64,000 nucleotides of DNA from Escherichia coli (GTDB taxonomy: Bacteria > Pseudomonadota > Gammaproteobacteria > Enterobacterales > Enterobacteriaceae): the NCBI RefSeq assembly GCF_050920415.1, contig NZ_CP169309.1; one strand, written 5' to 3'. Made by a program: the position numbers and the translations under genes. Shown here one piece after another: positions 11,413 through 32,091 of this stretch (its first letter is position 1; every line of letters starts with the position of its first letter). The notes beneath the pieces are model-generated. The model searched no databases and was not told the DNA's origin. It was given only the letters and a program-made list of their open reading frames with translations.

Positions 11413-11841
11413 TTAGATAGGCTGCGTCATTAAACCAACCGATTTCACACCCGCACTATGTAACAAGTTCAGTGCTTTAATTATTTCATCGTAAGGCACA
11501 TCTTTTGCGCCACCGATCAGAAAGACCGTTTTCGGGTTGGCCTTGAAACGGCTGGACACTTCCGCCACCACCTGCTCTGGTGGTAAACGCTCCAGGCGAT
11601 CTTTCTCAACCATCACGGTGTACTGACCAATACCAGACACTTCAACAATCACTGGCGGATTATCGTTACTGCTCACCGCCTGTGATTCAGTAGCGTCTGG
11701 CAGATCGACCTCCACGCTCTGGGTGATGATGGGCGCTGTCGCCATAAAGATCAGCAACAGCACCAGCAGTACGTCCAGCAACGGTACAATGTTGATTTCG
11801 GACTTGAGATCGCGACGACCTCGTCCACGCGCTCTGGCCAT
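11413..11841 (-). CDS. tolR: Tol-Pal system protein TolR
   Basis: 142-aa ExbD/TolR-family protein. Confidence 0.93.
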   Translation of the reverse strand: MARARGRGRRDLKSEINIVPLLDVLLVLLLIFMATAPIITQSVEVDLPDATESQAVSSNDNPPVIVEVSGIGQYTVMVEKDRLERLPPEQVVAEVSSRFKANPKTVFLIGGAKDVPYDEIIKALNLLHSAGVKSVGLMTQPI

Positions 11842-11844
11842 GGC

Positions 11845-12938
<1,094 letters not shown>

Positions 12939-13508: not shown

Positions 13509-14648
13509 TTAGTACAGAGAGTGGGTGTTACGTTCAATATCTTCTTTGGTGATACGACCGAACATTTTCCAGTAGCACCAGGCGGTGTAGAGCAGAATGA
13601 TCGGTACCAGAACCACCGCAACCCAGGTCATGACGTTAAGCGTCAGCTGGCTGGAAGTTGCATCCCACATTGTCAGACTTGCGTTCATCATGGTGCTGGA
13701 CGGCATCACAAACGGGAACATTGCAATACCGGCAGTCAGGATGATGCAGGCCAGCGTCAGGGAGGAGAACACAAACGCCCACGCCGCTTTATCCATACGT
13801 GCAGTCAGAATGGTCAGCAGAGGCAGAACCACACCCAGTACCGGAATAGCCCACAGAATCGGCGTGTTGTTGAAGTTCACCAACCATGCGCCAGCTTCAC
13901 GAACCACTTCTTTATTCAGCGGGTTAGATGCCGCGTAATGGTCCATTGTTGATTTCACAACATAACCATCGATACCGTACATCACCCATACGCCAGCCAG
14001 TGCGAAGCAGACCAGTGTCACCAGAGCCGCCACCTGAGCCGTTGCACGAGTACGCAGGTGCAGTTCGCCCACGGTGCGCATCTGCAGATAAGTCGCGCCC
14101 TGTGTAATGATCATCCCTACGCTCACCACACCTGCCAGCAAGCCGAACGGGTTAAGCAGCTGGAAGAAGTTACCGGTGTAGTACAGACGCAGATATTCAT
14201 CCACGTTGAACGGTACGCCCTGCAACAGGTTACCAAACGCCACGCCAATCACCAGCGGCGGAACGAAGCTACCAATGAAGATGCCCCAGTCCCACATGTT
14301 ACGCCAGCGGGTTTCTTCAATCTTGGAGCGGTAGTCAAAACCGACCGGACGGAAGAACAGAGACGCCAGCACGAGGATCATCGCGACATAGAAGCCGGAG
14401 AACGCAGCGGCATAGACCATCGGCCAGGCAGCAAACAGAGCGCCACCCGCAGTGATCAGCCATACCTGGTTACCGTCCCAGTGTGGTGCGATGGAGTTAA
14501 TCATAATTCGACGCTCGGTGTCGTTACGACCGAGGAAACGGGTGAGCATGCCCACCCCCATGTCGAAACCGTCAGTGACTGCAAAACCAATCAGCAGAAC
14601 GCCAACCAGCAGCCACCAGATAAAACGCAATACTTCATAATCGATCAT
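13509..14648 (-). CDS. cydB: Cytochrome bd-I ubiquinol oxidase subunit II
   Basis: 379-aa match to CydB. Confidence 0.95.
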   Translation of the reverse strand: MIDYEVLRFIWWLLVGVLLIGFAVTDGFDMGVGMLTRFLGRNDTERRIMINSIAPHWDGNQVWLITAGGALFAAWPMVYAAAFSGFYVAMILVLASLFFRPVGFDYRSKIEETRWRNMWDWGIFIGSFVPPLVIGVAFGNLLQGVPFNVDEYLRLYYTGNFFQLLNPFGLLAGVVSVGMIITQGATYLQMRTVGELHLRTRATAQVAALVTLVCFALAGVWVMYGIDGYVVKSTMDHYAASNPLNKEVVREAGAWLVNFNNTPILWAIPVLGVVLPLLTILTARMDKAAWAFVFSSLTLACIILTAGIAMFPFVMPSSTMMNASLTMWDATSSQLTLNVMTWVAVVLVPIILLYTAWCYWKMFGRITKEDIERNTHSLY

Positions 14649-14663
14649 TTGACGACTCCTGTC

Positions 14664-16232
14664 TTAGCGTGCCGGCTGAGTAGTCGTGGAAGACTGCTCA
14701 AAGTGATAGCGACCGGTTTTCAGGCTGCTTGGGCCGAGGCGTGCAAACTTGAACATCAAGAACAATTCTGCCACCAGGAACAGGGTATACAGGCCACAAA
14801 TCAGCACCATCGAGAAGATGAGGTCGCCTGCGGTCAGTGACGAGTTCGCTACAGCTGTCGGCAGCACTTCACCGATAGCCCAAGGTTGGCGACCATATTC
14901 AGCCACGAACCAGCCCGCTTCTACAGCAATCCACGGCAGCGGAATACCGTACAGTGCGGCGCGCAGCAGCCATTTTTTCTCGCCAATACGGTTGCGGATG
15001 ACACTCCAGAAAGAGAGCGCGATGATTGCCAGCAGCAGGAAGCCACACGCCACCATGATACGGAACGCGAAGTACAGCGGCGCTACACGTGGAATGGAGT
15101 CTTTGGTTGCCTGTTGAATCTGCGCTTCAGTCGCATCCGCCACGTTTGGCGTGTAGCGTTTCAGCAACAGACCGTAACCGAGGTCTTTCTTCATGCTATT
15201 GAACTGGTCACGAACCGCCTGGTCAGTAGACCCAGAACGCAGTTGCTCGAGCAGAGAGTACGCCTTCATCCCGTTACGGATGCGTTCTTCATGCTGCACC
15301 ATCAGCTCTTTCAGGCCGATAACCGGGGTATCCACGGAACGCGTTGCAATGATGCCCAGCGCGTAAGGGATCTGGATCGCAAATTTGTTCGTCTCCTCTT
15401 CCTGATCAGGAATGCCGAACAGAGTAAAGGCAGCAGGTGCAGGTTGCGTTTCCCACTCGGCTTCAATAGCAGCCAGTTTGGTTTTCTGCACGTCGCCCAT
15501 TTCATAACCAGATTCATCACCCAGAACAATAACAGACAGAACGGCAGCCATACCGAAGCTGGCAGCGATAGCAAAGGAGCGTTTAGCGAAGGCGAAGTCA
15601 CGACCTTTCAGCATATACCATGCGCTGATACCGAGGATGAACATCGCGCCAGTCACATAACCAGACGCTACCGTGTGAACGAATTTCACCTGAGCAACCG
15701 GGTTAAGCACCAGCTCGGAGAAGCTCACCATCTCCATACGCATAGTTTCAAAGTTGAAATCGGACGCGATTGGGTTTTGCATCCAGCCGTTCGCAACCAG
15801 AATCCACAGCGCGGACAGGTTTGAACCGAGCGCCACCAGCCAGGTGACACACATATGCTGAACTTTACCCAGACGATCCCAACCGAAGAAGAACAGACCT
15901 ACAAAGGTGGATTCGAGGAAGAAGGCCATCAGACCTTCGATTGCCAGCGGCGCGCCGAAAATATCCCCTACATAGTGGGAATAGTAAGACCAGTTAGTCC
16001 CGAACTGGAACTCCATGGTCAGACCGGTTGCCACACCCAGAGCGAAGTTGATACCAAACAACTTGCCCCAGAACTTGGTCATATCTTTATAAATCTGTTT
16101 GCCGGAAAGGACGTAGACCGTTTCCATAATGGCCAGCAGGAACGCCATACCGAGCGTCAGTGGCACAAAAAGGAAGTGGTACATCGCGGTCAAGGCAAAC
16201 TGTAAGCGCGACAGTTCGACTATATCTAACAT
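14664..16232 (-). CDS. cydA: Cytochrome bd-I ubiquinol oxidase subunit I
   Basis: Match to CydA; start at the second Met of the track ORF ([15 protein letters not shown]...). Confidence 0.95.
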
Positions 16233-16568
16233 CATGACTCCTTGCTCATCGCATGAAGACTCCGAGAGTGAACCCCGTTAGAAAGGGTCACACGCATGCC
16301 CCAATACAAAATTATTTGCTCGCCTCTATCGCTGCCTTTTCCTCAAAAGTGGAAAAGACAATGATAAAAAGTTACAAATATGTTAATGAATAAACCAAAT
16401 TGATCCCGTAATTATATTACGCCGCAAAATCCTTACAATAAACAGGTTTTTATTGAGCAAATTTGCATTTTTCGACAGTGATCAATTTATAGCGAAATTG
16501 TCACGACCTCACCAATTTGATCTACGACAATTTATCGTGTTTTGCAGATTTTTTTCAAGAATTAAAAA

Positions 16569-16582
16569 TTGATTTATATCAA
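16569..16582. promoter_or_regulatory. FNR/CRP-family half-site palindrome in the cydA upstream region
   Basis: Perfect TTGAT-TTAT-ATCAA about 335 bp upstream of the cydA start, in a roughly 800-bp AT-rich leader/promoter region. Confidence 0.55.
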
Positions 16583-17035
16583 AACCAATCAAATATGTTA
16601 ATTATGTATAAACCATAGACCATTGGTAATTTTATTGTTAATTTATTGTGAAATATTTATGTAACACAATTATTACAATAAAAAGACATAGATAAAAAAC
16701 CAGTGTTTTATTTAACAGAATCGCCTTATCAACTTTTTATAATACCAATTGATTAGAGTAGCCAATTTGTTGCTATTTTACATAACATATTTTTATCAAA
16801 GTTAATTGATTGTTGCCTTTATGAGCATCGCCGTAAGACCGCCATGTTATTGTTTCATTTGTAATAATCACCAATAAGTATCGATGAGAGAGATATCGCT
16901 TAACAGAGGCGACTGTGTCTGCATGAACACAGGCAACTTTCGCCTGATAAACGAAAAATGAGCGATTTTTGCAAGTTAGTTTTTCTATAGCTGGGTACGC
17001 TGAGCGCCTCGCTTGATTACAATGAGGTTGCTGCC

Positions 17036-17980
17036 ATGGGTCTTGATAATATAGGTTCTGTTGTCAATCGCTTCTCTGGTTGGCCATCAAATGATCCTCT
17101 AAAAACAGATAACGAATCAATGACATCACCCGTGACTGTGCAGGTAATAAAGTTGATTGCCGCCATCCTTGACCCACATCGGATAGTCGTTGGTATCGAT
17201 ACACTCTATACAACGCAGCGCAAAACATTTACCTCAGAGGGTCAACAACTCATTGAATCAGCATTGAAAACACTTAATGTGATGAATTTAAATAACCTGG
17301 AAACAGATCGCGATGAGGAGGGTAACTATCTGGCTTTTGGATATAACGTTGACACTCCTGACAGAATAACCGTTTCTGCTTATAATGAAAAAAAACCTTT
17401 CTGTTATGGCCAATGTCTTTTAATACAGGATGAAGAACCAGATTTATTTAACCTGGTAAAAATTAAAACCTTTGAAGCCAGGCATAATTATGTTTCTAAA
17501 TTGATGAGCGATCCGGAATTTATGTTTAAATTCAGTTATAGCGCCCAACAAAATAGATTAGAACCTCATCTTCTGGTTCCCACTTATTTCCCTCTGAAAA
17601 CAAACCAACCGGTTACGCTAGAGGATTTACTGATACTTTATCGTTTCTTTAAAATGAATGGCGATTTTAATATATTAACATCAGATGAATACATGAGTAT
17701 CATGACACCTCTGATGAAGTGTGAGCGTAGTGTCCACGACCATAACAGGTATGTGACGGGCAAAGATGCTCTTCTTCTGGACAATCCTCCGTCTGGTAAC
17801 CAGATATATTTCCATATTTCCCCTGACGAATCAGCAACACTTGTCCTTTATTTTTCAGACAATAACCTTGAATCCTTCGTCTTTGAAAATGATATTCCGA
17901 GCCAGTATCGACATTTCAAAATGTTTACCAATTTAGCACTAGTTATTGATCAGTTAACCGACGCCAATCAAATACTTTAA
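17036..17980 (+). CDS. Hypothetical protein, 314 aa, acidic, no recognised domain
   Basis: Clean ORF with GAGG RBS 8 nt upstream of the ATG; strongly AT-rich codon usage (N/K/I/F/Y-rich) unlike the flanking core genes; no signal peptide or TM segment evident. Confidence 0.6.
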   Translation: MGLDNIGSVVNRFSGWPSNDPLKTDNESMTSPVTVQVIKLIAAILDPHRIVVGIDTLYTTQRKTFTSEGQQLIESALKTLNVMNLNNLETDRDEEGNYLAFGYNVDTPDRITVSAYNEKKPFCYGQCLLIQDEEPDLFNLVKIKTFEARHNYVSKLMSDPEFMFKFSYSAQQNRLEPHLLVPTYFPLKTNQPVTLEDLLILYRFFKMNGDFNILTSDEYMSIMTPLMKCERSVHDHNRYVTGKDALLLDNPPSGNQIYFHISPDESATLVLYFSDNNLESFVFENDIPSQYRHFKMFTNLALVIDQLTDANQIL

Positions 17981-18059
17981 TTTTCTATACAGCCCTGTGT
18001 AAAATATTGCTAAACAGTGCCCGGGGTTGATTTTTATTCCTCACGGTGATATTTAAATC

Positions 18060-18482
18060 ATGACACCATCTCAGCTCTCTTTTAATACTCTTCCTGTCAA
18101 TGCAACATGCACTTCAGAGATAACAGTAAACACACAAAAATTCTCTGACATCCTCTACTCAGTGGGGTATTCCCTAAAGGATCTGGCTTATCTGAGCAGA
18201 TGTCTGGCATCATTACACCCAACACTCGCCAAAAACATTTATGAAACGGAAAATCTCAGCGATCAAAAATTACTTTATATAGATTGCCGTAGTACAAATG
18301 AAATCAAGATAAATATATTTTTGGGTCAAAAAAGAGAAGAATTAATCGAAATTAGTTCTGATACAGTCATTTTTTCGATACTGTCTTCATTGATTGACTC
18401 AGCTATTTCTGAACATCGACATCAAATCACCGTTAATGATTCAAATAATTCTGAACTATTTTATGAGGATTATACTGATTAA
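18060..18482 (+). CDS. Hypothetical small acidic protein, 140 aa
   Basis: ORF 80 bp downstream of the previous gene, same strand and same AT-rich composition; about 21 acidic versus 10 basic residues; Ser/Thr/Asn-rich N-terminus. Confidence 0.5.
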   Translation: MTPSQLSFNTLPVNATCTSEITVNTQKFSDILYSVGYSLKDLAYLSRCLASLHPTLAKNIYETENLSDQKLLYIDCRSTNEIKINIFLGQKREELIEISSDTVIFSILSSLIDSAISEHRHQITVNDSNNSELFYEDYTD

Positions 18483-19024
18483 ATCCACTCTGTGCGAACC
18501 TGTCCTGCATTTATGCCAGAAGTATTAGAATCTTTGCTTAACGTTACTCATACAGTAGCACCTTCATGTGTCTCTCTTTTTTACGAACAATCAAAAGAAC
18601 TAACAAGGGGCATAATTCGTATAAATTATTAACCATTTGTTATATTCAACATTTTTTTACATTAAGCAGAGATGAATTGCAGTGAAATTCAAGTTAAATT
18701 TTACGAAATGTATTACTCATGGCTAAAAAATCTTCCCAAAATGCAAATTAGAAGTTGATCACAATTATCTCAATCCATCAAATCAAGATAATTTTAAAAA
18801 TTTAACATCAATGACAGCGGTTGGCATAACACACTGAATTAAAATGAAAATTTAAAAAACAATTTTTAAACAATCATTTCCCGAAAGACATTTTGAAAAT
18901 AGATCAATTGCAACATTACGGTCAGATAAAGACACTCCTCTGATATTAAACCTGTGCCGTTATGAACGGCCATAAATACGACGTGTGTAACTTAATTTAC
19001 TCTCTGTCTTACAAAGGATTACCC

Positions 19025-19474
19025 ATGAAGAAAGCAACACTTGTGATTGGCGTTATTGGCGCGGACTGCCATGCAGTAGGCAATAAAGTTCTGGACCGCG
19101 TTTTTAGCAACCATGACTTCAGAGTCATTAATCTGGGCGTAATGGTCAGCCAGGACGAATATATTGATGCTGCCATTGAAACTGGCGCTGACGCGATTGT
19201 CGTCTCCTCTATCTATGGGCATGGCGATATCGACTGTCTGGGCATGCGCGAACGCTGCATTGAGCGTGGCTTGGGGGACATCCTGCTCTATGTGGGCGGC
19301 AACCTGGTGGTCGGAAAACATGACTTCGCTGACGTGGAAACCAAGTTCAAAGAGATGGGATTTGATCGCGTCTTCGCCCCAAGTCATGACTTAGAAGATG
19401 TCTGCCAGCTGATGGCCCACGATATCAACCAACGTCATGGCGTTGAAACTTGCATTCTTGAAGAGGCAATCTGA
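19025..19474 (+). CDS. glmS: Glutamate mutase sigma (S) subunit, B12-binding (methylaspartate mutase small subunit)
   Basis: [24 protein letters not shown]... carries the DxHxxG cobalamin-binding motif and resembles clostridial GlmS/MutS end to end; symbol is glutamate-mutase nomenclature, not GlcN-6-P synthase. The track ORF is extended 21 codons upstream. Confidence 0.85.
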
Positions 19475-20862
19475 TGCAAATCGTCTCTGTCGATATTGGA
19501 TCGACGTGGACCAAAGCAGCCCTCTTCACCCGGGAGGGGGACGCGTTAACGTTGGTTAACCACGTTCTGACCCCAACCACCATCCATCATCTGGCAGAGG
19601 GATTTTTCTCCAGCCTTAACCAGGTGTTAAACGTAGATAATGCCCTCCCCCTGTTAAACCGCGGTGAGGTTGCATTGAAGTATTCCTCTTCTGCCAAAGG
19701 TGGGCTGGCGGTTGCCGCAATGGGAATAGTGCCTTCTATCACTCTGGAAACCGCGAAAGTAACCGCTCACTCTGCAGGTGCTAAAATTGCGCAATATTAC
19801 TCCTACAAGCTGAACCGCCGTGATATCCAGGCACTAGAAGAAACGCAGCCCGATATTCTCTTGTTCACCGGCGGCACCGACGGCGGAGAAGAAAGCTACG
19901 GACTGAATAACGCCCGTGTGCTGGCAGAATCCAAACTCGACTGCGCCATTATTTATGCCGGAAACCGGGATATTCAGGACAAGGTGCAGGAGACCCTCGG
20001 GCATAAAGACCTGACCATCGTCGACAACGTTCTGCCCGATCTTGACCATCCGAACCCTTTAGCTGCACGCCAGGCTATCTGCGACATATTCCTTAAACGC
20101 ATCGTTAAAGGGAAAGGGCTGGATGTCATTGTTGATAAAACAGGCGAAGAACCAATGCCGACACCATGGACGGTCTTTGAACTGGTGAAGGCAATCAGTA
20201 ACGTCGATCACAGCTGGAAAGAGTTCATGCTGATCGACATGGGCGGCGCAACCACCGATGTCTATTCCGCCTGTGCCAACACGCTCTCGCCCGACACTGT
20301 TTTACATGGCGTACCGGAACCCTTCGTAAAACGGACGGTGGAAGGCGATCTGGGAATGCGCGTCTCGGCAATGGTGGTTGGTGAAAGTGCGAAAGAGTTA
20401 GTCAGTGTGAATTTTGCTCAGCAACCCGCACAGTTGGACGCTTTTTATCATTACCTCCGTCATCTAGTCGCTCATCCCGACTACTTACCCGCGAATGCAG
20501 ATGAAAAATATTTCGATACCGTCCTGGCCGGACTGTGTGTGGGTTATGCCACCGAAAGACATGCGGGCACCAAAAAAGAGGTCTGCACCTGCGTCGGCAA
20601 TGTCGATTTACAGATGGGACGTGACCTGACAACCGTGCGTAAAGTCGTGGGTTCCGGCGGATGGCTCTCGCGTGCCAGTCAGTTCGATATGCATCACTGG
20701 TTGAAATACCGCGAGTTAAACGACGACGGTAAACGCATTCTCTTACCGACCGAATTTGAATATTACCGCGATTCCCGGGGGCTATTACCACTGCTGGCAA
20801 ACGTCGCCAGAGTCGATCCGCTGGCCGCCGCGCGCACCAGTATTCAATGCTTAACCCTATAA
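19474..20862 (+). CDS. glmL: Glutamate mutase-associated component L (MutL/GlmL-like, predicted actin/hexokinase-fold ATPase)
   Basis: 462-aa ORF translationally coupled to glmS (TGATG) in the conserved S-L-E order; N-terminal DIGSTWTKAA ATPase-like motif. Confidence 0.7.
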   Translation: MQIVSVDIGSTWTKAALFTREGDALTLVNHVLTPTTIHHLAEGFFSSLNQVLNVDNALPLLNRGEVALKYSSSAKGGLAVAAMGIVPSITLETAKVTAHSAGAKIAQYYSYKLNRRDIQALEETQPDILLFTGGTDGGEESYGLNNARVLAESKLDCAIIYAGNRDIQDKVQETLGHKDLTIVDNVLPDLDHPNPLAARQAICDIFLKRIVKGKGLDVIVDKTGEEPMPTPWTVFELVKAISNVDHSWKEFMLIDMGGATTDVYSACANTLSPDTVLHGVPEPFVKRTVEGDLGMRVSAMVVGESAKELVSVNFAQQPAQLDAFYHYLRHLVAHPDYLPANADEKYFDTVLAGLCVGYATERHAGTKKEVCTCVGNVDLQMGRDLTTVRKVVGSGGWLSRASQFDMHHWLKYRELNDDGKRILLPTEFEYYRDSRGLLPLLANVARVDPLAAARTSIQCLTL

Positions 20863-20880
20863 CAATTAAGGCTGCAATCA

Positions 20881-22326
20881 ATGGAACTTCGAAATAAGAA
20901 ATTAACCCATGACGAATTCATGACCGAGCGGCAACAGGTATTGAAAACCTGGGAAACCGGCAAGGATGTTGAAAACTTTGAAGATGGCGTTAAATACCAA
21001 CAAACCATTCCTGAGCATAAACGCTTCTCTCTTGCCCTGCTGAAAGCAGACAAGGAAGGTAAAACCCTTAGCCAACCGCGCGCAGGCGTGGCGCTGATGG
21101 ACGAACACATCGAACTACTGAAAACACTACAAGAAGAGTGCGATCTGCTGCCGAGCACTATCGATGCATATACCCGTCTGAATCGGTACGAAGAAGCGGC
21201 TGTAGGGATTAAAAAATCCATCGAAGCCGGAACCTCTAAACTGAACGGTTTACCGGTAGTTAACCACGGCGTCGCAGCTTGCCGTCGCCTCACCGAAACT
21301 CTGCAAAAACCGCTACAGATCCGCCACGGCACGCCTGATGCGCGTCTGCTGGCTGAAATCTCGATGGCCAGCGGCTTTACCAGTTATGAAGGCGGCGGCA
21401 TTTCCTACAATATTCCGTATGCCAAGCGCGTAACGCTGGAAAAATCGATCCGCGACTGGCAGTACTGCGATCGTTTAATGGGGATGTATGAAGAACACGG
21501 GATCCGCATCAACCGCGAACCGTTTGGCCCACTAACGGGTACGCTAATCCCGCCGTTTATCTCGCACTCTATCGCAATAATCGAAGGCTTGCTGGCACTG
21601 GAACAGGGTGTGAAGTCTATCACCGTTGGTTATGGTCAGGTCGGTAGCCTGACGCAGGATGTTGCGGCGATCCAGTCTCTGCGGGAACTTGCACACGAAT
21701 ATTTTCAGAGCTATGGCTATACCGACTACGAATTAAGTACCGTGTTTCACCAGTGGATGGGAGGCTTTCCGGAGGACGAATCGAAAGCGTTCGCCATTAT
21801 CTCCTGGGGTGCTGCCGTCGCGGGGATGTCTGGTGCTACCAAAGTCATCACCAAAAGTCCGCACGAAGCCTGGGGCATCCCGACTGCTGCTGCCAACATT
21901 CAGGGGCTAAAAGCCTCCCGCCAGATGCTCAACATGGTCAACGAGCAGAAATTCCCGCCGTGCCCGGCGGTTGAACTAGAAATTGAACTGATTAAGAGCG
22001 AGGTTCGCGCTGTACTGAACAAAGTGTTCGAACTGGGCAATGGTGATATTGCGCGCGGTACGGTGCTGGCATTTGAAGCGGGCGTACTGGATGTGCCGTT
22101 TGCGCCAGCCGCCTGCAACGCAGGCAAAATTCTTCCGGTCCGTGACAACACCGGCGCGATACGCGTACTGGAAGCCGGAGCCGTTCCATTGCCAAAAGAT
22201 ATTCTCGACCTCCACCACGATTACGTTGCTGAACGCGCGCGCTTTGAAGGACGCCAACCGACATTCCAGATGGTTGTAGATGACATCAATGCTGTATCCC
22301 ACAGTAAATTAATAGGAAGACCATAA
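20881..22326 (+). CDS. glmE: Glutamate mutase epsilon (E) catalytic subunit
   Basis: 481 aa; long colinear similarity to clostridial GlmE/MutE (LSQPRAGVAL, PSTIDAYTR, NREPFGPLTGTL, FQMVVDDI...). Confidence 0.88.
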   Translation: MELRNKKLTHDEFMTERQQVLKTWETGKDVENFEDGVKYQQTIPEHKRFSLALLKADKEGKTLSQPRAGVALMDEHIELLKTLQEECDLLPSTIDAYTRLNRYEEAAVGIKKSIEAGTSKLNGLPVVNHGVAACRRLTETLQKPLQIRHGTPDARLLAEISMASGFTSYEGGGISYNIPYAKRVTLEKSIRDWQYCDRLMGMYEEHGIRINREPFGPLTGTLIPPFISHSIAIIEGLLALEQGVKSITVGYGQVGSLTQDVAAIQSLRELAHEYFQSYGYTDYELSTVFHQWMGGFPEDESKAFAIISWGAAVAGMSGATKVITKSPHEAWGIPTAAANIQGLKASRQMLNMVNEQKFPPCPAVELEIELIKSEVRAVLNKVFELGNGDIARGTVLAFEAGVLDVPFAPAACNAGKILPVRDNTGAIRVLEAGAVPLPKDILDLHHDYVAERARFEGRQPTFQMVVDDINAVSHSKLIGRP

Positions 22327-23567
22327 TGAAAATAAAACAGGCCCTTTTTACCGCTGGCTACTCCTCATTCTATTTCGATGATCAGCAGGCGATAAAAAAC
22401 GGAGCGGGTCACGACGGCTTTTTTTATACCGGAGAGCCGGTAACACAGGGGTTTAACGCCGTACGTCAGGCCGGGGAGTGCGTTTCGGTTCAGTTGATTC
22501 TGGAAAACGGTGCGGTCGCCGTAGGCGACTGTGCTGCCGTACAGTATTCCGGGGCAGGCGGTCGCGATCCACTGTTCCTCGCAGAGCACTTTATTCCGTT
22601 CCTCAACGACCATATCAAGCCATTACTGGTAGGCCGCGATGTGGATGCTTTCCTGCCGAATGCCCGTTTCTTCGACAAATTGCGTATTGACGGAAACTTG
22701 CTGCATACCGCCGTACGTTATGGATTATCACAGGCGCTGCTTGATGCTACCGCGCTGGCAACCGGCCGTCTAAAAACTGAAGTGGTCTGTGATGAATGGC
22801 AGTTGCCACGCGTGGCGGAATCCATTCCATTATTTGGTCAGAGCGGAGACGATCGATATATCGCTGTCGATAAGATGATCCTTAAGGGCATCGACGTGCT
22901 ACCTCATGCGCTGATTAATAACGTCGAAGAGAAACTGGGCTTTAAAGGAGAAAAACTGCGCGAATATGTCCGTTGGCTATCCGATCGGATTCTAAGCAAA
23001 CGCACCAGCGCACGCTACCACCCTACCCTACACATCGATGTATACGGCACTATTGGTCTGATCTTCGATATGGATCCGCTTCGCTGTGCGCAATACATCG
23101 CCAGTCTGGAAAAAGAGGCGCAAGGCCTGCCGCTCTACATTGAGGGGCCGGTCGATGCCGGTAACAAGCCCGATCAAATCCGCCTGCTGACCGCGATTAC
23201 CAAAGAGCTGACGCGCCTCGGTTCCGGCGTGAAAATTGTGGCCGATGAATGGTGTAACACCTACCAGGATATTGTTGATTTCACTGATGCCGCCAGTTGC
23301 CACATGGTGCAAATCAAAACCCCGGATCTGGGCAGTATTCACAACATCGTCGATGCAGTTCTTTATTGCAACAGCCACAGCATGGAAGCGTACCAGGGCG
23401 GCACCTGCAATGAAACCGATGTCAGCGCCCGCACGTGTGTCCACGTCGCCCTTGCCGCTCGCCCCATGCGTATGCTGGTAAAACCGGGGATGGGCTTTGA
23501 CGAAGGCCTCGATATCGTCTTCAACGAAATGAATCGTACTATCGCGCTGTTGCAGGCTAAGGATTAA
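22326..23567 (+). CDS. mal: 3-methylaspartate ammonia-lyase (beta-methylaspartase)
   Basis: 413-aa enolase-superfamily protein of typical MAL length; start overlaps the glmE stop (TAATG). Confidence 0.85.
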   Translation: MKIKQALFTAGYSSFYFDDQQAIKNGAGHDGFFYTGEPVTQGFNAVRQAGECVSVQLILENGAVAVGDCAAVQYSGAGGRDPLFLAEHFIPFLNDHIKPLLVGRDVDAFLPNARFFDKLRIDGNLLHTAVRYGLSQALLDATALATGRLKTEVVCDEWQLPRVAESIPLFGQSGDDRYIAVDKMILKGIDVLPHALINNVEEKLGFKGEKLREYVRWLSDRILSKRTSARYHPTLHIDVYGTIGLIFDMDPLRCAQYIASLEKEAQGLPLYIEGPVDAGNKPDQIRLLTAITKELTRLGSGVKIVADEWCNTYQDIVDFTDAASCHMVQIKTPDLGSIHNIVDAVLYCNSHSMEAYQGGTCNETDVSARTCVHVALAARPMRMLVKPGMGFDEGLDIVFNEMNRTIALLQAKD

Positions 23568-23570
23568 CAA

Positions 23571-24941
23571 ATGGCTCGTTCTTTTAAAGTCTTATCGCCA
23601 ACGGCAATCCTCGGGTATGGATTCCCGGAAGAGAGCTTCCGCAAAGCGATGGCAGAATCGCCCGATCTGATCGCCGTTGATGCAGGATCTTCCGATCCAG
23701 GTCCCCACTACCTCGGGGCAGGCAAACCGTTTACCGATCGCGCAGGGGTCAAGCGCGATCTGCGCTATATGATCACCGCAGGCGTGCAAAATAATATACC
23801 GGTGGTGATCGGAACGGCCGGCGGTTCTGGTGCCGCTCCACACCTGGAGTGGTGCCGAGAAATAATTCATGAGATTGCCCGGGAAGAGCGCCTCGCGTTC
23901 TCGATGGCGCTGATCCCGGCAGACGTTGACAAAGCCATCGTCCACCAGGCGCTGGATAACGGCAAAATCACGGCGCTGGATTTTGTCCCGCCGTTAACCC
24001 ACGACTCGATTGACGAAAGTACGTATATCGTCGCGCAAATGGGCATCGAACCCTTCCAGCGGGCGCTGAAAGAAGGAGCGCAAGTGGTGCTGGGCGGGCG
24101 CGCTTACGACCCGGCCTGCTTTGCTGCGCTTCCGATCATGCAAGGCTTTGATGAAGGTCTGGCACTGCATTGTGGGAAAATCCTTGAATGTGCGGCAATC
24201 GCTGCAACACCCGGCTCAGGCTCTGACTGTGCGATGGGCATCATTGATGACAACGGCTTTACGCTGAAGACGTTTAATCCGAAGCGTAAATTTACCGAAA
24301 CGTCAGCTGCTGCACACACACTGTATGAGAAATCCGATCCCTACTTTCTGCCAGGACCTGGCGGCGTGCTAAACCTGAAAGGTTGCACATTTAAAGCGAT
24401 CAATGATGGCGAAGTGTACGTCAGCGGTTCTAAGCATGAAGAAACGCCCTATGCCCTGAAACTGGAAGGTGCGCGGCGGGTGGGTTTCCGCTGTTTGACC
24501 ATCGCCGGAACGCGCGACCCGATCATGATCGCCGGGATCGATAACATCATCGATGAAGTCAAAACCAGCGTTTCGCGTAATCTGTCCTTAGACGATGACA
24601 GCATTCGCATCAATTTCCACCTGTACGGCAAAAACGGGGTGATGGGTGACCATGAACCGATGCAAACTGCCGGGCATGAGCTGGGGATTGTCCTTGATGT
24701 AGTTGCACCGACCCAGGAAATTGCCAACAGCGTTTGCTCGCTGGTGCGCTCTACCATGCTGCACTACGGCTATGAAAACCGCATCGCTACCGCAGGCAAC
24801 CTGGCGTTCCCGTTCTCCCCTTCTGATATCCAGGGCGGGCCGGTATACGAATTTTCCATATATCACCTGATTGAAGCCAACGACGCTCTGCGTTTTGATT
24901 TCCATATTGAACAGGTGACGCCAGAAGGAGTTCAGGCATGA
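23571..24941 (+). CDS. Uncharacterised protein, probably DUF1446 (AtuA-like) family
   Basis: 456-aa soluble protein inside the operon, 4 bp after mal; family assignment is from memory of the AtuA-like family and is tentative. Confidence 0.5.
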   Translation: MARSFKVLSPTAILGYGFPEESFRKAMAESPDLIAVDAGSSDPGPHYLGAGKPFTDRAGVKRDLRYMITAGVQNNIPVVIGTAGGSGAAPHLEWCREIIHEIAREERLAFSMALIPADVDKAIVHQALDNGKITALDFVPPLTHDSIDESTYIVAQMGIEPFQRALKEGAQVVLGGRAYDPACFAALPIMQGFDEGLALHCGKILECAAIAATPGSGSDCAMGIIDDNGFTLKTFNPKRKFTETSAAAHTLYEKSDPYFLPGPGGVLNLKGCTFKAINDGEVYVSGSKHEETPYALKLEGARRVGFRCLTIAGTRDPIMIAGIDNIIDEVKTSVSRNLSLDDDSIRINFHLYGKNGVMGDHEPMQTAGHELGIVLDVVAPTQEIANSVCSLVRSTMLHYGYENRIATAGNLAFPFSPSDIQGGPVYEFSIYHLIEANDALRFDFHIEQVTPEGVQA

Positions 24942-25255
24942 AACAGTCAATTGTCTCACTGGCGCAAGTCATTCGTTCGAAAAATGCCGGACCTTACGAA
25001 CTGGTTTTAGATATTTTATTTAAAACGAAAGAAAACTATGAGCGAGTAAAATCATCAGGGCAATTAACCCCAGAACTGATTGCGCGCTTATATCATGTTG
25101 AACCTGACTTTATTCATCGTATTGTCTGGTTTGATCCTTCTAACGCAGTAAAAATTGTCATGCCACGAGATATTATCTCCGGGAATGTAGGTGACAATGA
25201 TGTCTATGGCGCACAGCAACATGCACCTTTATTAAATATGAGTTTCGATTTGTAA
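24938..25255 (+). CDS. Small uncharacterised protein, probably DUF4387-like partner of the preceding gene
   Basis: 105-aa ORF overlapping the upstream stop by 4 nt (ATGA coupling). Confidence 0.5.
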   Translation: MKQSIVSLAQVIRSKNAGPYELVLDILFKTKENYERVKSSGQLTPELIARLYHVEPDFIHRIVWFDPSNAVKIVMPRDIISGNVGDNDVYGAQQHAPLLNMSFDL

Positions 25256-25341
25256 AAATCCGAACACTTTTAGCCAACTGACATCCCGTCACTTATTGCA
25301 GCTCAACACTTCAGCTATTTGTAAGGTTGTTATAGCAGGTA

Positions 25342-25367
25342 GATGCCTGAATCTCTATTCAGGCATC
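25342..25367 (+). promoter_or_regulatory. Perfect 11-bp inverted repeat (stem-loop or operator) between the DUF4387-like gene and the transporter gene
   Basis: gatgcctgaat-ctct-attcaggcatc; no downstream T-run, so not a classic intrinsic terminator. Confidence 0.4.
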
Positions 25368-25415
25368 CACTTCTCCTGATTCTGATTTATCGCCGTGCAC
25401 CTGATGGAGGAAAAA

Positions 25416-26696
25416 ATGAAGAAAATAAGTTTAACTACGATGATTCTTTTGGCGCTGGTACTTGGAATGATTATCGGCGTAGTGCTCAATAACACTGCTT
25501 CACCGGAAACAGCAAAACTCTATGCGCAAGAAATATCGATATTCACGACGATTTTCTTACGACTGATAAAAATGATTATCGCTCCGTTAGTGGTCTCTAC
25601 CCTGGTGGTAGGTATTGCTAAAATGGGCGATGCCAAAGCCCTTGGTCGTATTTTTTCTAAAACACTCTTTTTATTTATTTGCGCCTCATTGCTGTCAATT
25701 GCCTTAGGCTTGATAACGGTAAATTTCTTCATGCCAGGCACAGGAATTAATTTTGTTGCACACGGTGCCGAAACCACCGGAGTGGTCGCGTCAGAACCCT
25801 TTACACTAAAAGTATTTATTTCGCATGCTTTCCCCACCAGCATTGTCGATGCCATGGCGCACAATGAAATTTTGCAAATCGTGGTGTTCTCAATTTTCCT
25901 CGGCTGTAGCCTGACGGCGATTGGTGAGAAAGGCAGCGCCATCGTTCACGCCTTAGATTCGCTGGCACATGCCATGTTAAAGCTCACTGGCTACGTCATG
26001 CTCTTCGCTCCCCTGACCGTATTCGCCGCTATTTCAGCATTGATTGCTGAACGAGGACTGGCAGTTATGGTGAGCGCCGGGATCTTTATGGGTGAATTTT
26101 ATTTCACCATGTTATTACTTTGGGTGCTGCTTATCGGTCTGGCCATCGTTTATGTCGGCCCCTGCATCAGACGCCTGACCCGCGCCCTTTCAGAACCCGC
26201 CCTGCTGGCATTTACCACATCCAGTTCTGAAGCTGCTTTTCCGGGAACGCTTGAAAAACTGGAGCAATTTGGCGTTTCCCCCAAAATTGCCAGCTTTGTC
26301 TTACCCATTGGCTACTCATTTAATCTCGTTGGATCAATGGCCTACTGCTCCTTCGCCACAGTTTTCATCGCCCAGGCCTGCAATATCCATTTATCCATCG
26401 GTGAGCAAATCACCATGCTGTTGATCCTGATGTTGACCTCGAAAGGAATGGCTGGCGTACCACGCGCCTCAATGGTGGTTATCGCCGCCACGCTCAACCA
26501 GTTCAATATTCCGGAAGCGGGGCTGATCTTGCTGATGGGCGTTGATCCGTTCCTTGATATGGGGCGTTCCGCGACAAACGTCATGAGCAACGCAATGGGC
26601 GCTGCGATGGTGAGTCGGTGGGAAGGCGAACATTTCGGCGAGGGTTGTCGGGGTAAAGCATTAAAACCCAATGAATCGAACGTTGCTCTGCCCTGA
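25416..26696 (+). CDS. Dicarboxylate/amino acid:cation symporter (DAACS/GltP-DctA family)
   Basis: Polytopic membrane protein with an AFTTSSSEAAFP motif typical of the family; GGAGG RBS 5 nt before ATG 25416; the track ORF starts at an upstream GTG. Confidence 0.8.
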   Translation: MKKISLTTMILLALVLGMIIGVVLNNTASPETAKLYAQEISIFTTIFLRLIKMIIAPLVVSTLVVGIAKMGDAKALGRIFSKTLFLFICASLLSIALGLITVNFFMPGTGINFVAHGAETTGVVASEPFTLKVFISHAFPTSIVDAMAHNEILQIVVFSIFLGCSLTAIGEKGSAIVHALDSLAHAMLKLTGYVMLFAPLTVFAAISALIAERGLAVMVSAGIFMGEFYFTMLLLWVLLIGLAIVYVGPCIRRLTRALSEPALLAFTTSSSEAAFPGTLEKLEQFGVSPKIASFVLPIGYSFNLVGSMAYCSFATVFIAQACNIHLSIGEQITMLLILMLTSKGMAGVPRASMVVIAATLNQFNIPEAGLILLMGVDPFLDMGRSATNVMSNAMGAAMVSRWEGEHFGEGCRGKALKPNESNVALP

Positions 26697-26803
26697 GGGG
26701 GATCTTAAGCAATCAGAAGCCAATGACTACGCATTTTTATAAGCCGGATCATGAAGTTAGACGGCAATTAAGTAACACTAACGTTTAAGGTGAAAAGTGA
26801 AAT

Positions 26804-28456
26804 ATGTCCAAACCATTTATCTGGCAAGAACCGTTTCTACAAAATAAAGACGGTACAGAATATACATTAATTAGCGATCAACATATTACAGTAACGGAAT
26901 TAGACGGCGAAGAAGTGATAAAAATCGCTCCTGAAGCATTAACGCTGCTTGCCCGGCAGGCATTTTATGAAGCCTCTTTTTTCTTACGTTCCGCTCATTT
27001 GCAACAGGTCGCCAGCATTCTTAGCGATCCGCAGGCCAGTAGTAATGATAAATACGTTGCGTTGCAGTTATTACGTAATGCTGAAGTCTCAGCAAAAGGG
27101 GTATTACCCAACTGTCAGGATACCGGCACCGCAACTATTGTTGCCAGTAAAGGGCAACAGATATGGACGGGAGGTAACGACGCTGAAGCCTTAAGCAAAG
27201 GCATTTACAGTACTTTCCAGGAAAATAATCTGCGCTTTTCACAAAATGCGCCGCTGGATATGTATACCGAAGTCAATACGCAAACCAATCTCCCGGCGCA
27301 GATTGATATCAGCGCTGTCGCTGGTAATGAGTACCATTTTCTCTGTGTTAATAAAGGGGGCGGCTCCGCCAATAAAGCCGCGCTTTATCAGGAAACCAAA
27401 TCCTTATTGCAACCAGAAAAACTGACCGCGTTTTTAATCGACAAAATGAAATCGTTGGGCACGGCCGCCTGCCCGCCCTACCACATCGCCTTTGTCATCG
27501 GAGGGCTTTCAGCCGATCAAACCTTAAAAGTTGCCAAGCTGGCCTCTACGAAATATTACGACAATTTGCCCACCAGCGGAAACGAGCAGGGACAAGCATT
27601 CCGTGATATTGAGCTGGAAAAAGCGTTGCTCGAAGCCAGTCAGCAATTTGGTATTGGTGCGCAATTTGGGGGTAAATATTTCGCTCATGATATTCGCGTC
27701 ATTCGTCTGCCGCGTCACGGTGGCTCTTGCCCGATAGCTATGGCGCTCTCCTGTTCTGCCGATCGCAATATCAAAGCAAAAATTAACAAGCACGGTATCT
27801 GGCTGGAAAAACTCGAACACAATCCGGGGCAATATATTCCAGCCTCATTGCGGGAAGAAAATCACGCGCAACATGTACACCTGGATCTAAACCGTCCGTT
27901 GCGTGACGTGATGCAGGATCTCGCCAGATTACCGGTAGGTACCCGCGTGTCGTTAAGTGGTCCCATCGTAGTGGCGCGCGATATCGCCCACGCAAAAATA
28001 AAAGCGCGGCTGGATAGCGGCGAATCGATGCCGGATTACCTGAAGCATCATATTGTCTATTACGCTGGCCCGGCGAAAACACCGGAGAACATGGCCTGCG
28101 GTTCACTGGGTCCAACCACGGGCGGTCGAATGGACGGTTATGTCGAAACCTTCCAGGCGGCTGGCGGCAGTCTGGTAATGTTATCGAAAGGTAACCGCAG
28201 CCAGCAGGTCACCGATGCCTGTCACAAACATGGCGGCTTCAATCTGGGAAGTATTGGCGGTGCAGCTGCGTTACTGGCGCAAGAATATGTCAAAAGTCTG
28301 CGTTGCCTGGAATACCCGGAGCTGGGTATGGAGGCGGTGTGGATGATGGAAGTGGAAAATCTGCCCGCATTCATCCTGGTCGATGATAAAGGCAATAATT
28401 TCTTTAGTCAGTTTGAGCAGCAACACCGCTGCGCCAGTTGCCCTGCGGGACATTAA
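26804..28456 (+). CDS. fumD: Class I (Fe-S) fumarate hydratase paralogue, mesaconase-type
   Basis: 550 aa, colinear with FumA/FumB ([45 protein letters not shown]); the fumD name is by analogy to the O157:H7 mesaconase, as I recall it. Confidence 0.8.
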
Positions 28457-28465
28457 GGAAAATGA

Positions 28466-29068
28466 ATGGAAGCGCGAATTTCAACTGAACGGCATGTGCA
28501 GCGCCAGCAGAAATTGAAGGAACAGGTCGATACGCGCGTCGCGGCGGCGATAGAGAAAAAAGGGATCTTGATTGTTTTCACCGGCAACGGCAAAGGGAAA
28601 TCCACTGCCGCGTTTGGTACTGTGACGCGCGCGGTGGGTCATGGCAAAACGGTGGGGGTTGCACAGTACATCAAGGGGCAATGGGACAACGGCGAATACA
28701 ACCTTCTCCAGCCGCTGGGGGTTGAGTTTCATATTATGGGAACCGGTTTTACCTGGGAGACTCAGAACCGGCAAGCGGATATCGATGCGGCGAAAGAGGT
28801 CTGGTCGGAAAGCAAACGGATGCTGGCTGACAAGCGTTACGACTTAGTGGTGCTTGATGAGCTCACCTATATGCTGGCTTACCATTATCTGGATACAGAA
28901 GAAGTGATCACTTCTCTGCAAAACCGTCCGGCACAACAAAGTGTCATTGTCACCGGACGCGGTTGCCACAGTCAGATATTAAAAATGGCGGATACGGTAA
29001 GTGAAATCCGCCCCGTCAAACATGCTTTTGATAACGGCATTCAGGCCCAGCCGGGGATCGACTGGTAA
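28466..29068 (+). CDS. Cob(I)alamin adenosyltransferase (CobA/BtuR family) paralogue
   Basis: 200 aa with P-loop VFTGNGKGKST; colinear with E. coli BtuR. Confidence 0.85.
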   Translation: MEARISTERHVQRQQKLKEQVDTRVAAAIEKKGILIVFTGNGKGKSTAAFGTVTRAVGHGKTVGVAQYIKGQWDNGEYNLLQPLGVEFHIMGTGFTWETQNRQADIDAAKEVWSESKRMLADKRYDLVVLDELTYMLAYHYLDTEEVITSLQNRPAQQSVIVTGRGCHSQILKMADTVSEIRPVKHAFDNGIQAQPGIDW

Positions 29069-29071
29069 TAA

Positions 29072-29105
29072 CTGCGCCTGGCATCCCGCCAGGCGCAGGT
29101 TTTAC
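29072..29105. terminator. Bidirectional hairpin terminator between the cobA-like and LysR genes
   Basis: ctgcgcctgg-catcccg-ccaggcgcag with flanking T/A runs; lies between convergent stop codons. Confidence 0.6.
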
Positions 29106-30007
29106 ATCTCCTGCGGTACGACCGATTTCGCCAGCAACCATTCACGAAATTGCTGCAAGTGCGGAGAGTCAGACTTCTCTTCCTGCCACGTCATAATAAA
29201 ACGATTACCGGTACGAATAGGCACATCACAGGGGATCACCATATCGCCACTATCCAAATCATGTTGAATAGCGAACCGTGGTAACAGCGCCACGCCGAGA
29301 TTAGAGCGCACGGCGGCAATCAGCATTGAAAGCAAATCGAAACGTGGTCCGTTATTGACCAGCGGACTGCTAACGCCAGATAAAGCAAACCACTCTTCCC
29401 AGCCAGTAATACGGGTGCTTTGATGCAGAAGTGGTAACTCAGTAAGCAGTTCTGCCACTGACAGTTTTTGATCGGACATTGCAAGCAAACTGCCGCTGCA
29501 TACCGGCAAAATCTCCTCTTCAAAGAGATATTCTACTTCCGCCCAGGGCGCGCAAAAATTTTCGCGCATAATGACAGCATCGTACTCCCGATTAAGAAAA
29601 TCGCCGTTATTAGCTAAAGAATGAATATTAACAATAATATCGGGATGTAACTTTGTGAATTCATGTAAATTTGGGATTAACCAGTGGGTACTAAACGTAG
29701 GATTAACGGCAAGTTCAATAACCTGAACCGTAGGCTGCCAGGTCATAATCGTATTGGTATCGCGTTCCAGCTTATTTAATGTTTCTTTTACTATCCCCAG
29801 GTAATACTTCCCTGCATCATTAAGAAAAATGCGTTTTTTAGAGTGTGAAAATAACGGAGTATGTAAAAATTCCTCCAGCGCACTTACTTGTCTGAATACA
29901 GCACTTTGGGTTAACGCTAACTCCTCAGCCGCTCTGGTATAACTTTCATGTCGTGCGACGACCTCAAAAGTCACCAGCAGCTCCGTTTTAGGTATTTTTC
30001 CTCGCAT
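29102..30007 (-). CDS. LysR-family transcriptional regulator
   Basis: N-terminal helix-turn-helix (YTRAAEELALTQSAVFRQV) plus co-inducer-binding domain; start chosen at the internal Met (MRGKIP...), the track ORF extends to 30037. Confidence 0.8.
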   Translation of the reverse strand: MRGKIPKTELLVTFEVVARHESYTRAAEELALTQSAVFRQVSALEEFLHTPLFSHSKKRIFLNDAGKYYLGIVKETLNKLERDTNTIMTWQPTVQVIELAVNPTFSTHWLIPNLHEFTKLHPDIIVNIHSLANNGDFLNREYDAVIMRENFCAPWAEVEYLFEEEILPVCSGSLLAMSDQKLSVAELLTELPLLHQSTRITGWEEWFALSGVSSPLVNNGPRFDLLSMLIAAVRSNLGVALLPRFAIQHDLDSGDMVIPCDVPIRTGNRFIMTWQEEKSDSPHLQQFREWLLAKSVVPQEM

Positions 30008-30596
30008 AATGCCGTCCGTGAAAAAATAACAACTCAAAAATTATTTTATAAAAAACAGTAGCACTAATGAATATCATAATTCAAATAAACAAACCAGTCA
30101 GCTATATGTCTAACCAGGAAAATAAAGTGACAATAATCCTAAAACAGGAATTTCACCTCAGTTATCCGCATGCAATACTTTAAAGCTATTATTGCAAGAA
30201 TATTATTCATATACATGAATATACTCTAAATAAGTCAAGTTGCAGGAAGGGAACAAATAATGAATTTCCAGAAGCTTACATAAGTAAGTGACCTGGGTGA
30301 GCGAACATCGATGCAGCACATGCAACTTGAATTATGACAAGTATACAATGATAAATTTATATACCCTATGTTATATATTATCTATGTCCGGTTAAATTGA
30401 ATGAGTCATAGCCTTAAAAGACTTCACAAAAGATAATTCCTCTTTAACAATAAGCCAGATTTACCACTTGTAAAACTTGCTATCGCCACATACACTACGC
30501 GCGTTTTCTTTCCCTTTTGCTGGCTGCTGACCGGAAAGACAAAATTACCCTCGCAATACAGGGGGTTGTTTAACGTCTATATTTCAGGACAGCGTT

Positions 30597-31994
30597 ATGC
30601 ATCATCTTTTAAGGCTTGATAAAGCCTTTCTGCGCAAAGGGATCCAACTTTCCCGTGCCAACAATATTGTTTCATTATGTCGTCCATCAGGAGCCAGTGC
30701 CCGCGTACTGCTGCCGGACGAACTGCCGCTGGAAGAAAAAGCAGTGACACAACTGCTTGATTTTGCAGAAGTGAAGATACCAGGCCATCCAGGTTACGTA
30801 CGCCAGACGTGCGCGACGCCAGATTTTCATCCCGGCAATGGCGTCCCCGTTGGCGCGGTGGTGGCCTCAACGCCGGATTTAGTCATTCCCGCCGCCATCG
30901 GCACCGATATTTCTTGTGGCATGCGGCTGCTGACGACCGGATTAACACTTGAGCAAGCCGAAGCGCATAAAGACGTCATCGCTCAGCGGTTAACGCAAGT
31001 GCTACTGCAAAATGAGCGCGATGTTCCGTTATCCGCACAGGCGTTCACCGCGCTTTTTGATGGCGGACCGGCAGATTGCGTGTCGACCTTGCCATCAGCA
31101 GGTCTCTGGACACGCACGAATATCCCCCGAATGGTACAAGAGATTGACCGCTGCATTGGGCTTAACGAGCATAACAGTCATTCGCGTTATGCCCCACCCG
31201 CCCTGCTGGCAACGGACCGCGCATTACTCCGCGATCCTTGTCTGGGTACGCCGGGTTCAGGTAATCATTTTATTGAACTTCAGGTCGTTGATAGCGTGGT
31301 TGATCGCCATGTAGCCTGGCAACAAGGGCTGAAAACAGGCGATATTGTGGTGATGATCCACAGTGGATCGCGAGATGTTGGCTTTTACGTCGGAAGACGC
31401 TGGATGGATCGCGCCCGTGCTGAATGGCCCACCGGACATAAACATCCACAAAGCGGGTTATATGGTCTGGCAGGCGGACTGGCGGAGGAATATCTACAAG
31501 CGATAGGAATGGCGGCGCGTTACGCGTGGTTAAATCGCGTGACAATTGCCGAAATGGTGCGCGTATGTCTTGCCAATCTCTTTCATCAGGACAATTCGCA
31601 TCTGGTGGTGGATGTGCCACATAACATCATCCTTCGCGAGCATGAAATGAATATTCATCGCAAAGGCGCAACACCGGCACGAGTGGGCAATCTGGCGTTA
31701 ATCCCTGGTTCAATGGGCGATTATTCGTGGCTTGCGGTAGGTTGCGGCAACCCGGAGTGGCTGTGGTCATGCAGTCACGGAGCAGGACGCAGCCAGCGTC
31801 GGCAGGCCATGCGCTCACGCGCGACTGAAGAGTCAACGCTGCCGTGGCAATGCGTCACATTGCGCGAAGAACGACGTCTTGAAGAAGCGCCAGCGGCTTA
31901 TAAAGATATTGGTCCGGTTATCGAAGCTCAACAAGAAGCCGGATTAATTCAGCCAGCGGTCAGATTTCGACCGTGGTTAACGTTTAAAGCATAA
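30597..31994 (+). CDS. RtcB-family RNA ligase paralogue (3'-phosphate/5'-OH ligase)
   Basis: 465 aa with the RtcB signature blocks IPAAIGTDISCGMRL, GSGNHFIEL, MIHSGSRDVG, IPGSMGDYS and CSHGAGR; about 30-aa N-terminal extension relative to K-12 RtcB. Confidence 0.8.
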   Translation: MHHLLRLDKAFLRKGIQLSRANNIVSLCRPSGASARVLLPDELPLEEKAVTQLLDFAEVKIPGHPGYVRQTCATPDFHPGNGVPVGAVVASTPDLVIPAAIGTDISCGMRLLTTGLTLEQAEAHKDVIAQRLTQVLLQNERDVPLSAQAFTALFDGGPADCVSTLPSAGLWTRTNIPRMVQEIDRCIGLNEHNSHSRYAPPALLATDRALLRDPCLGTPGSGNHFIELQVVDSVVDRHVAWQQGLKTGDIVVMIHSGSRDVGFYVGRRWMDRARAEWPTGHKHPQSGLYGLAGGLAEEYLQAIGMAARYAWLNRVTIAEMVRVCLANLFHQDNSHLVVDVPHNIILREHEMNIHRKGATPARVGNLALIPGSMGDYSWLAVGCGNPEWLWSCSHGAGRSQRRQAMRSRATEESTLPWQCVTLREERRLEEAPAAYKDIGPVIEAQQEAGLIQPAVRFRPWLTFKA

Positions 31995-32091
31995 AAAAGG
32001 CCATCATATGATGGCCAACCATGTCGAAACCGACAGCCCTTCGCCATTCCTGTAGAGGGAAGCGGCGAGGGCTATTTCTTATTACAAGTAT
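31993..32091 (-). ncRNA. sdhX: 3'-UTR-derived sRNA SdhX (RybD) with the sucD terminator
   Basis: About 97 nt directly after the sucD stop, ending in the ggccatcat-atgatggcc hairpin plus U-run (31993-32016); assigned from position relative to sucD, sequence identity to K-12 not verified. Confidence 0.45.

Follow-up and report, generated by a model that had tools for sequence, protein, structure and literature searches.

The subject of this analysis is a pair of adjacent genes, here called cmlA and cmlB, that lie in the glutamate mutase-methylaspartase operon of a 64,000-nt stretch of Escherichia coli DNA (contig NZ_CP169309.1; the whole stretch is referred to below as the window), and that very probably encode the two subunits of a heteromeric (S)-citramalate lyase, CmlAB, the enzyme of the last step of the methylaspartate pathway. 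The pair follows mal, the gene for 3-methylaspartate ammonia-lyase, closely: the TAA stop of mal occupies 23565-23567, three nucleotides (CAA) follow, and cmlA begins with the ATG at 23571, whose first base is the fourth past the stop. Likewise, the ATG of cmlB (24938-24940) shares bases with the TGA of cmlA (24939-24941), forming an ATGA at 24938-24941. Each start codon is preceded at a distance of 7 nt by a Shine-Dalgarno-like motif (AAGGA at 23559-23563 for cmlA, AAGGAG at 24925-24930 for cmlB), and to judge from the ATGA overlap, cmlB is translationally coupled to cmlA. The two open reading frames (ORFs) of 456 and 105 amino acids, their overlap, and the start of cmlA 4 bp after mal had all been described in an initial annotation of this DNA, and we find each of them as it was described.

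That annotation had also placed the products, as probable members, in the families DUF1446 and DUF4387, and profile searches bear this out, with CmlA matching the Pfam family AtuA (PF07287, formerly DUF1446; E 1.5e-18, 67.3 bits, residues 63-394) and CmlB matching DUF4387 (PF14330; E 2.9e-39). In RefSeq both ORFs are annotated as coding sequences, under the product names 'acyclic terpene utilization AtuA family protein' (cmlA) and 'DUF4387 domain-containing protein' (cmlB). NCBIfam holds no model for CmlA or for CmlB, and DUF4387 is not named in the literature that we searched by full text. Ratios of nonsynonymous to synonymous substitution rates (dN/dS), computed against orthologues from Escherichia sp., Klebsiella, Citrobacter and Salmonella, are 0.03-0.06 for cmlA, 0.03-0.10 for cmlB and 0.02-0.05 for mal, values that point to purifying selection on both members of the pair as strong as that on mal.

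The evidence that carries the functional assignment is the close match between the pair and an enzyme that has been crystallised. In a search of PDB sequences, CmlA is identical to 9erq_A/9evf_A at 419 of 456 positions (91.9%, over all 456 residues; E 5.6e-293), and CmlB to 9erq_B/9evf_B at 88 of 104 (84.6%; E 5.2e-57), the molecules having been named by their depositors 'Citramalate lyase, subunit A (cmlA)' and 'subunit B (cmlB)'. We took the ligand content of the two entries, 9ERQ and 9EVF, from their titles: one of the pair, released 2025-10-22, is titled 'Citramalate lyase - AMPPNP - citramalate complex', and the other, released 2025-10-08, 'Citramalate lyase - ADP - pyruvate complex'. An AlphaFold2 (AF2) model of CmlA superposes on 9evf_A with a template modelling (TM) score of 0.90. 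Furthermore, all 158 columns that are invariant among 22 orthologues (62-89% identity), which serve here as a proxy for the active site, are kept in both the window CmlA and the PDB CmlA, and while 37 substitutions in CmlA and 16 in CmlB separate the window proteins from the PDB proteins, none lies at an invariant position of CmlA. A Klebsiella michiganensis locus (L006) that carries the same cluster, glmS-glmL-glmE-mal-cmlA-cmlB-gltP-fumD-cobO-LysR, encodes a CmlA whose sequence matches the crystallised one at 100% identity. Every feature of membership that could be tested was thus found in the window pair, which on sequence grounds is an orthologue of CmlAB.

Functional data exist for another orthologue. 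According to a recent preprint (10.64898/2026.01.16.699985), Cml, the product of cmlAB of Raoultella planticola, converts citramalate to pyruvate and acetate in vivo: on mesaconate, growth of an E. coli strain auxotrophic for acetyl-CoA depends on plasmid-borne cmlAB, label from mesaconate was traced into acetyl-CoA in the cmlAB strain, and the route is described as CoA-independent. The initial annotation had proposed the pair either as the missing step that disposes of citramalate or as an accessory function. The identity to 9ERQ and 9EVF, the in vivo conversion reported in the preprint, and the co-occurrence with mal and the mutase genes described below all favour the first proposal, and given a citramalate lyase identity the second is not needed. 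Two points weigh on the other side, namely that the function of the E. coli CmlAB is read from depositors' names, entry titles and one preprint on an orthologue, and that its activity would be carried over from a protein that is 92% identical. It should also be said that citramalate lyase as the answer was already public, from October 2025 in the PDB and from January 2026 in the preprint.

To place the pair in a wider context, we scanned one genome per species and recovered 561 relatives of CmlA, the best 80 of which (at least 60% identity) were analysed as loci. Represented among them are Enterobacterales, Rhodocyclales, Riflebacteria, Lentisphaerae, Spirochaetes, Aminicenantes/Acidobacteriota, Oligoflexales and further groups. 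The gene immediately upstream of cmlA is mal in 76 of the 80 loci (76 of the 78 whose contig extends upstream), glmS-glmL-glmE precede mal wherever the contig reaches far enough, and a CmlB-like ORF follows cmlA in 77, the remaining three (L002, L057 and L062) being short contigs. A FumD-like gene is present in 55 of the 80 (56 of 81 when the window's own locus, L001, is included). The initial annotation had held that a pair not co-occurring with glutamate mutase and methylaspartase genes in other genomes would speak against its proposal; co-occurrence holds in 76 of the 80 loci. Of the four loci that lack mal, two stop so near cmlA that the upstream genes are out of view, and two are true exceptions. 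In the first of these, from Holophagaceae (L071), a class I fumarase-type hydratase of two subunits, a mesaconase-like neighbour, is encoded after cmlAB, and the locus holds neither glutamate mutase nor mal; it may represent a mesaconate/citramalate module that is fed from another source. The same hydratase is flanked by two unassigned ORFs of 323 and 295 aa (11367-12338 and 13816-14703 of that locus). The second, from Accumulibacter (L050), is an orphan cmlAB pair between resistance-nodulation-division (RND) efflux and malQ genes, and is uninformative.

Fused proteins in the family bear on the relationship between the two subunits. Of the best 150 family representatives, 18 exceed 600 aa in length, and every one of these carries DUF4387 C-terminal to the AtuA-like part. 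These natural A-B fusions, together with the co-crystallisation of the two chains, show that CmlA and CmlB form one unit. The AtuA+DUF4387 family as a whole comprises at least 2,384 clusters at 50% identity. One entry of the scan calls for a separate remark: a 7.3-kb contig from a 'Collinsella sp.' metagenome-assembled genome (L003, JAIJJM010000101.1) carries mal, cmlA, cmlB, gltP, fumD and cobO, whose protein products are 98-100% identical to those of E. coli. This contig almost certainly belongs to Escherichia and was binned wrongly; we do not take it for a copy in an actinobacterium.

The operon to which the pair belongs (Table 1) is the E. coli cluster described by Kronen and Berg (PLoS One 2015, PMC4682846), who named its symporter GltP. 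The hairpin that follows cobO is the strongest terminator-like site within 16.2-30.7 kb, a scan that returned no comparable site between mal, cmlA, cmlB and gltP, and the arrangement consequently fits a single transcript running from glmS to cobO. An Rfam scan of the operon returned no cobalamin riboswitch or other RNA element at gathering score, and neither annotation nor NCBIfam gives a CoA-transferase or ligase gene in it. Within the 139-nt spacer between cmlB and gltP lies a 14-nt inverted repeat (25339-25370; 13 of 14 positions complementary, 4-nt loop, no T-run), which may form a hairpin that stabilises the mRNA or directs its processing, or may be bound by a regulator.

Table 1 Features of the operon that contains cmlA and cmlB (positions are those of the window)
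Feature	Position	Strand	Remarks
glmS, glutamate (methylaspartate) mutase subunit S	19025..19474	+	RefSeq annotation
glmL, glutamate mutase accessory/reactivating protein	19474..20862	+	RefSeq annotation
glmE, glutamate mutase subunit E	20881..22326	+	RefSeq annotation
mal, 3-methylaspartate ammonia-lyase	22326..23567	+	RefSeq annotation; directly upstream of cmlA in 76/80 loci
cmlA, probable large subunit of citramalate lyase	23571..24941	+	456 aa, ATG start; AtuA/DUF1446 family
cmlB, probable small subunit of citramalate lyase	24938..25255	+	105 aa, ATG start; DUF4387
gltP/dctA-like dicarboxylate/amino acid:cation symporter, presumed glutamate uptake	25416..26696	+	Annotation; NCBIfam DctA/GltP similarity below cut-offs
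fumD, class I fumarase/mesaconase, mesaconate to (S)-citramalate	26804..28456	+	NCBIfam NF011921, 1273.8 bits, above cut-off
cobO/cobA, cob(I)alamin adenosyltransferase, coenzyme B12 for the mutase	28466..29068	+	NCBIfam TIGR00708 and NF004637, above cut-offs
Terminator-like hairpin, operon end	29072..29098	+	11 pairs, 9 of them G-C; T-rich tail
LysR-type regulator, convergent with the operon	29102..30007	-	Annotation; position conserved in most enterobacterial loci

The pair and its operon sit in a chromosomal island between cydA and sucD, where an insert at 16236-32091 takes the position held in most E. coli by mngR-mngA-mngB. At least 80% of the island is found in 1,116 of 5,426 complete E. 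coli genomes and the pair in 1,125 of them, with 1,121 genomes retaining at least 80% of the pair at 95-100% identity. Directly 5' of glmS, the island also carries two ORFs on the plus strand (17036-17980 and 18060-18482; 314 and 140 aa, 33-38% GC) that are annotated as hypothetical and have no match in NCBIfam or in PADLOC, which covers defence systems; at this edge of the island, they resemble cargo that was acquired separately. Between the LysR regulator and sucD lies a lone RtcB-family gene (30597-31994, plus strand, 465 aa), which falls below NCBIfam cut-offs and has no rtcA adjoining it.

Taken together, the genes of the operon would supply a complete route from glutamate. The GltP-like symporter would import glutamate, which GlmSE, with the help of GlmL and of coenzyme B12 made by CobO, would convert to 3-methylaspartate; Mal would release ammonia from this to give mesaconate, FumD would hydrate mesaconate to (S)-citramalate, and CmlAB would cleave (S)-citramalate to pyruvate and acetate without CoA or an acyl carrier protein (ACP). 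As for the chemistry of the last step, we propose that ATP would phosphorylate the C4 carboxylate of citramalate to give citramalyl phosphate, an acyl phosphate, that this would be cleaved to pyruvate and acetyl phosphate, and that the phosphoryl group would go back to ADP, either on the enzyme or via acetate kinase (AckA), leaving net pyruvate and acetate. A carbanion beside a free C4 carboxylate is a very poor leaving group unless that carboxylate is activated, and the C4 carboxylate must therefore be activated in some way. The classical lyase activates citramalate as a thioester on an acyl carrier protein (Buckel and Bobi 1976, as cited in PMC4682846). In the crystals, non-hydrolysable AMPPNP stands in the substrate complex and ADP in the product complex, which suggests that ATP is turned over with citramalate. 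Additionally, CmlA has three invariant glycine-rich segments (D37-x-G-S-x-D-P-G-P, G81-x-x-G-G-x-G-A-x-x-H91 and P214-G-S-G-x-D), two of which are the sole low-confidence loops of the AF2 model, and these segments are candidates for ligand-binding loops. On balance, we lean slightly towards a chemical role for ATP in CmlAB rather than a purely structural or allosteric one.

The principal alternative accepts CmlAB as a citramalate lyase but makes the nucleotide only structural or allosteric, with a direct metal- or base-catalysed retro-aldol cleavage to acetate and no acyl phosphate. The preprint (10.64898/2026.01.16.699985) counts for this alternative and against a chemical role for ATP in two respects. 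It gives the reaction simply as a cleavage of citramalate into pyruvate and acetate, with no mention of ATP anywhere, and the strains that it evolved had raised levels of Acs even with pta and ackA intact. A need for more Acs when pta and ackA are intact points to free acetate, and not acetyl phosphate, as the released product, and so favours either return of the phosphoryl group on the enzyme or a non-chemical role for the nucleotide. Our own literature search for ATP, acetyl phosphate or citramalyl phosphate in this reaction returned nothing relevant. Against a purely structural nucleotide stand the ligands of the two complexes and the poor leaving group that direct cleavage would require, a difficulty that citrate lyase and the classical citramalate lyase both meet with a thioester. 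We consider direct cleavage a possibility of some weight, albeit not a probable one. Should ATP prove a true co-substrate, acetate kinase would make the CmlAB step energy-neutral, and neither CoA nor ACP would be needed for it. The broader idea, that ATP is a true co-substrate and that ATP-driven cleavage of tertiary beta-hydroxy acids is general to the whole AtuA+DUF4387 family, including Pseudomonas AtuA and ThnQ/ThnS, is offered tentatively, and we would not yet call it likely.

An alternative of a different kind is that the pair and the island are, in E. coli, a silent or decaying acquisition without present function, even though the Klebsiella and Raoultella orthologue is active. This draws on the work of 2015, in which no conditions for expression of the cluster were found in E. 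coli ATCC 700728, and growth was not improved by glutamate (PMC4682846), and on the accessory nature of the island, present in roughly 1,116-1,125 of 5,426 complete genomes. However, both ORFs are intact and have good ribosome-binding sites, their dN/dS values (0.03-0.10) are like those of mal, every family-invariant residue is kept, and the pair persists at high identity in the more than a thousand genomes that carry it. Moreover, the citramalate lyase assay of 2015 was run without ATP, without Mg2+ and on cells that did not express the operon (PMC4682846), and so could not have detected CmlAB. We therefore give the idea of a functionless acquisition very little credence.

Equally improbable is a pair that acts on another pathway substrate, as a second methylaspartate- or mesaconate-converting enzyme or a CoA-ester lyase of the kind proposed for AtuA and ThnQ/ThnS, or is accessory: some homologues (P0002, P0060 and P0071) are named '3-methylaspartate ammonia-lyase' and other members of the AtuA family are linked to CoA esters, yet CmlA has no significant similarity to the operon's own Mal (best BLASTP E 0.1) and no Pfam MAAL domain, the crystal complexes contain free citramalate and pyruvate and no CoA esters, the preprint's route is CoA-independent, and the operon has no gene for a CoA-transferase or ligase. 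Labels of this sort on such proteins had already been noted as given 'for unknown reason' (PMC4682846). To us the label looks like an annotation carried over from the neighbouring gene.

With CmlAB as the probable citramalate lyase, a gap left in 2015 can be closed. Kronen and Berg characterised the fumarase of the cluster, from E. coli O157:H7, as the mesaconase FumD, found no citramalate lyase activity in E. coli citrate lyase, isocitrate lyase or methylisocitrate lyase, and neither gave the DUF1446 gene a function nor settled what becomes of citramalate in the enterobacterial methylaspartate pathway (PMC4682846). If the assignment holds, roughly one E. coli genome in five carries, on this island, a complete pathway that turns glutamate into pyruvate, acetate and ammonia, and over 1,100 complete genomes of the species could have the two genes re-annotated. 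CmlAB would also serve as a functional reference point for a large family without an assigned function, for which credit is due to the depositors of 9ERQ and 9EVF.

Several features elsewhere in the window are unconnected with the operon. An IS21-like element, ISEc62 (istA and a frameshifted istB; about 45533-47498, plus strand), splits the fimbrial usher gene of a ybgO/ybgP operon. On the minus strand, a group II intron is matched by Rfam RF00029 (62.8 bits, 61023-61098), and adjoining this match is an ltrA gene for a reverse transcriptase/maturase (about 61099-62420), frameshifted according to its annotation. At the right edge of the window (about 63005-64000, minus strand) lie genes for an S-type pyocin domain protein and a bacteriocin immunity protein.

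Comparison with known systems helps to define what kind of lyase the pair is likely to be. Its nearest counterpart is the CmlAB of Raoultella planticola and Klebsiella, with which the window pair shares its two-subunit architecture, fold, gene order and invariant residues, and from which it differs in host species. The classical CitDEF lyase, with CitC, CitX and CitG (EC 4.1.3.22 and 4.1.3.6; Clostridium tetanomorphum and enterobacteria), has the same net reaction and the same place in the pathway, and in clostridial clusters CitDEF genes occupy the place of cmlAB (PMC4682846). We tested CmlAB for homology with the CitDEF family and found none. The initial annotation had seen no recognisable citramalate lyase, or other step to remove citramalate, in the cluster. 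We find no homologue of CitC, CitD, CitE, CitF, CitX or CitG in the 64-kb window; nor is there one in any of the scanned cmlAB loci. By this comparison of sequences and gene content, CmlAB appears to be a non-homologous replacement of the ACP-dependent lyase.

Relatives by family are found instead in AtuA of Pseudomonas aeruginosa and in ThnQ/ThnS of anaerobic naphthalene degraders, which have the same Pfam domains (PF07287 and PF14330) in a two-gene or fused architecture. There are no atu or thn genes near the window pair, its neighbours being glmSLE, mal, gltP, fumD and cobO; with no atu cluster around it, we regard the RefSeq product name of CmlA, which refers to acyclic terpene utilisation, as misleading. 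The AtuA-like pair ThnQ/ThnS is credited with opening a ring by breaking, at a tertiary alcohol, the bond to a carbon that sits beside a free carboxyl group (cited as unpublished in PMC12016498). Set beside the cleavage of citramalate, this suggests that AtuA, ThnQ/ThnS and CmlAB may share one reaction type. Within the AtuA family CmlA is a divergent member, as its low Pfam score of 67 bits shows, and its substrate would be a free C5 dicarboxylate and not a CoA ester.

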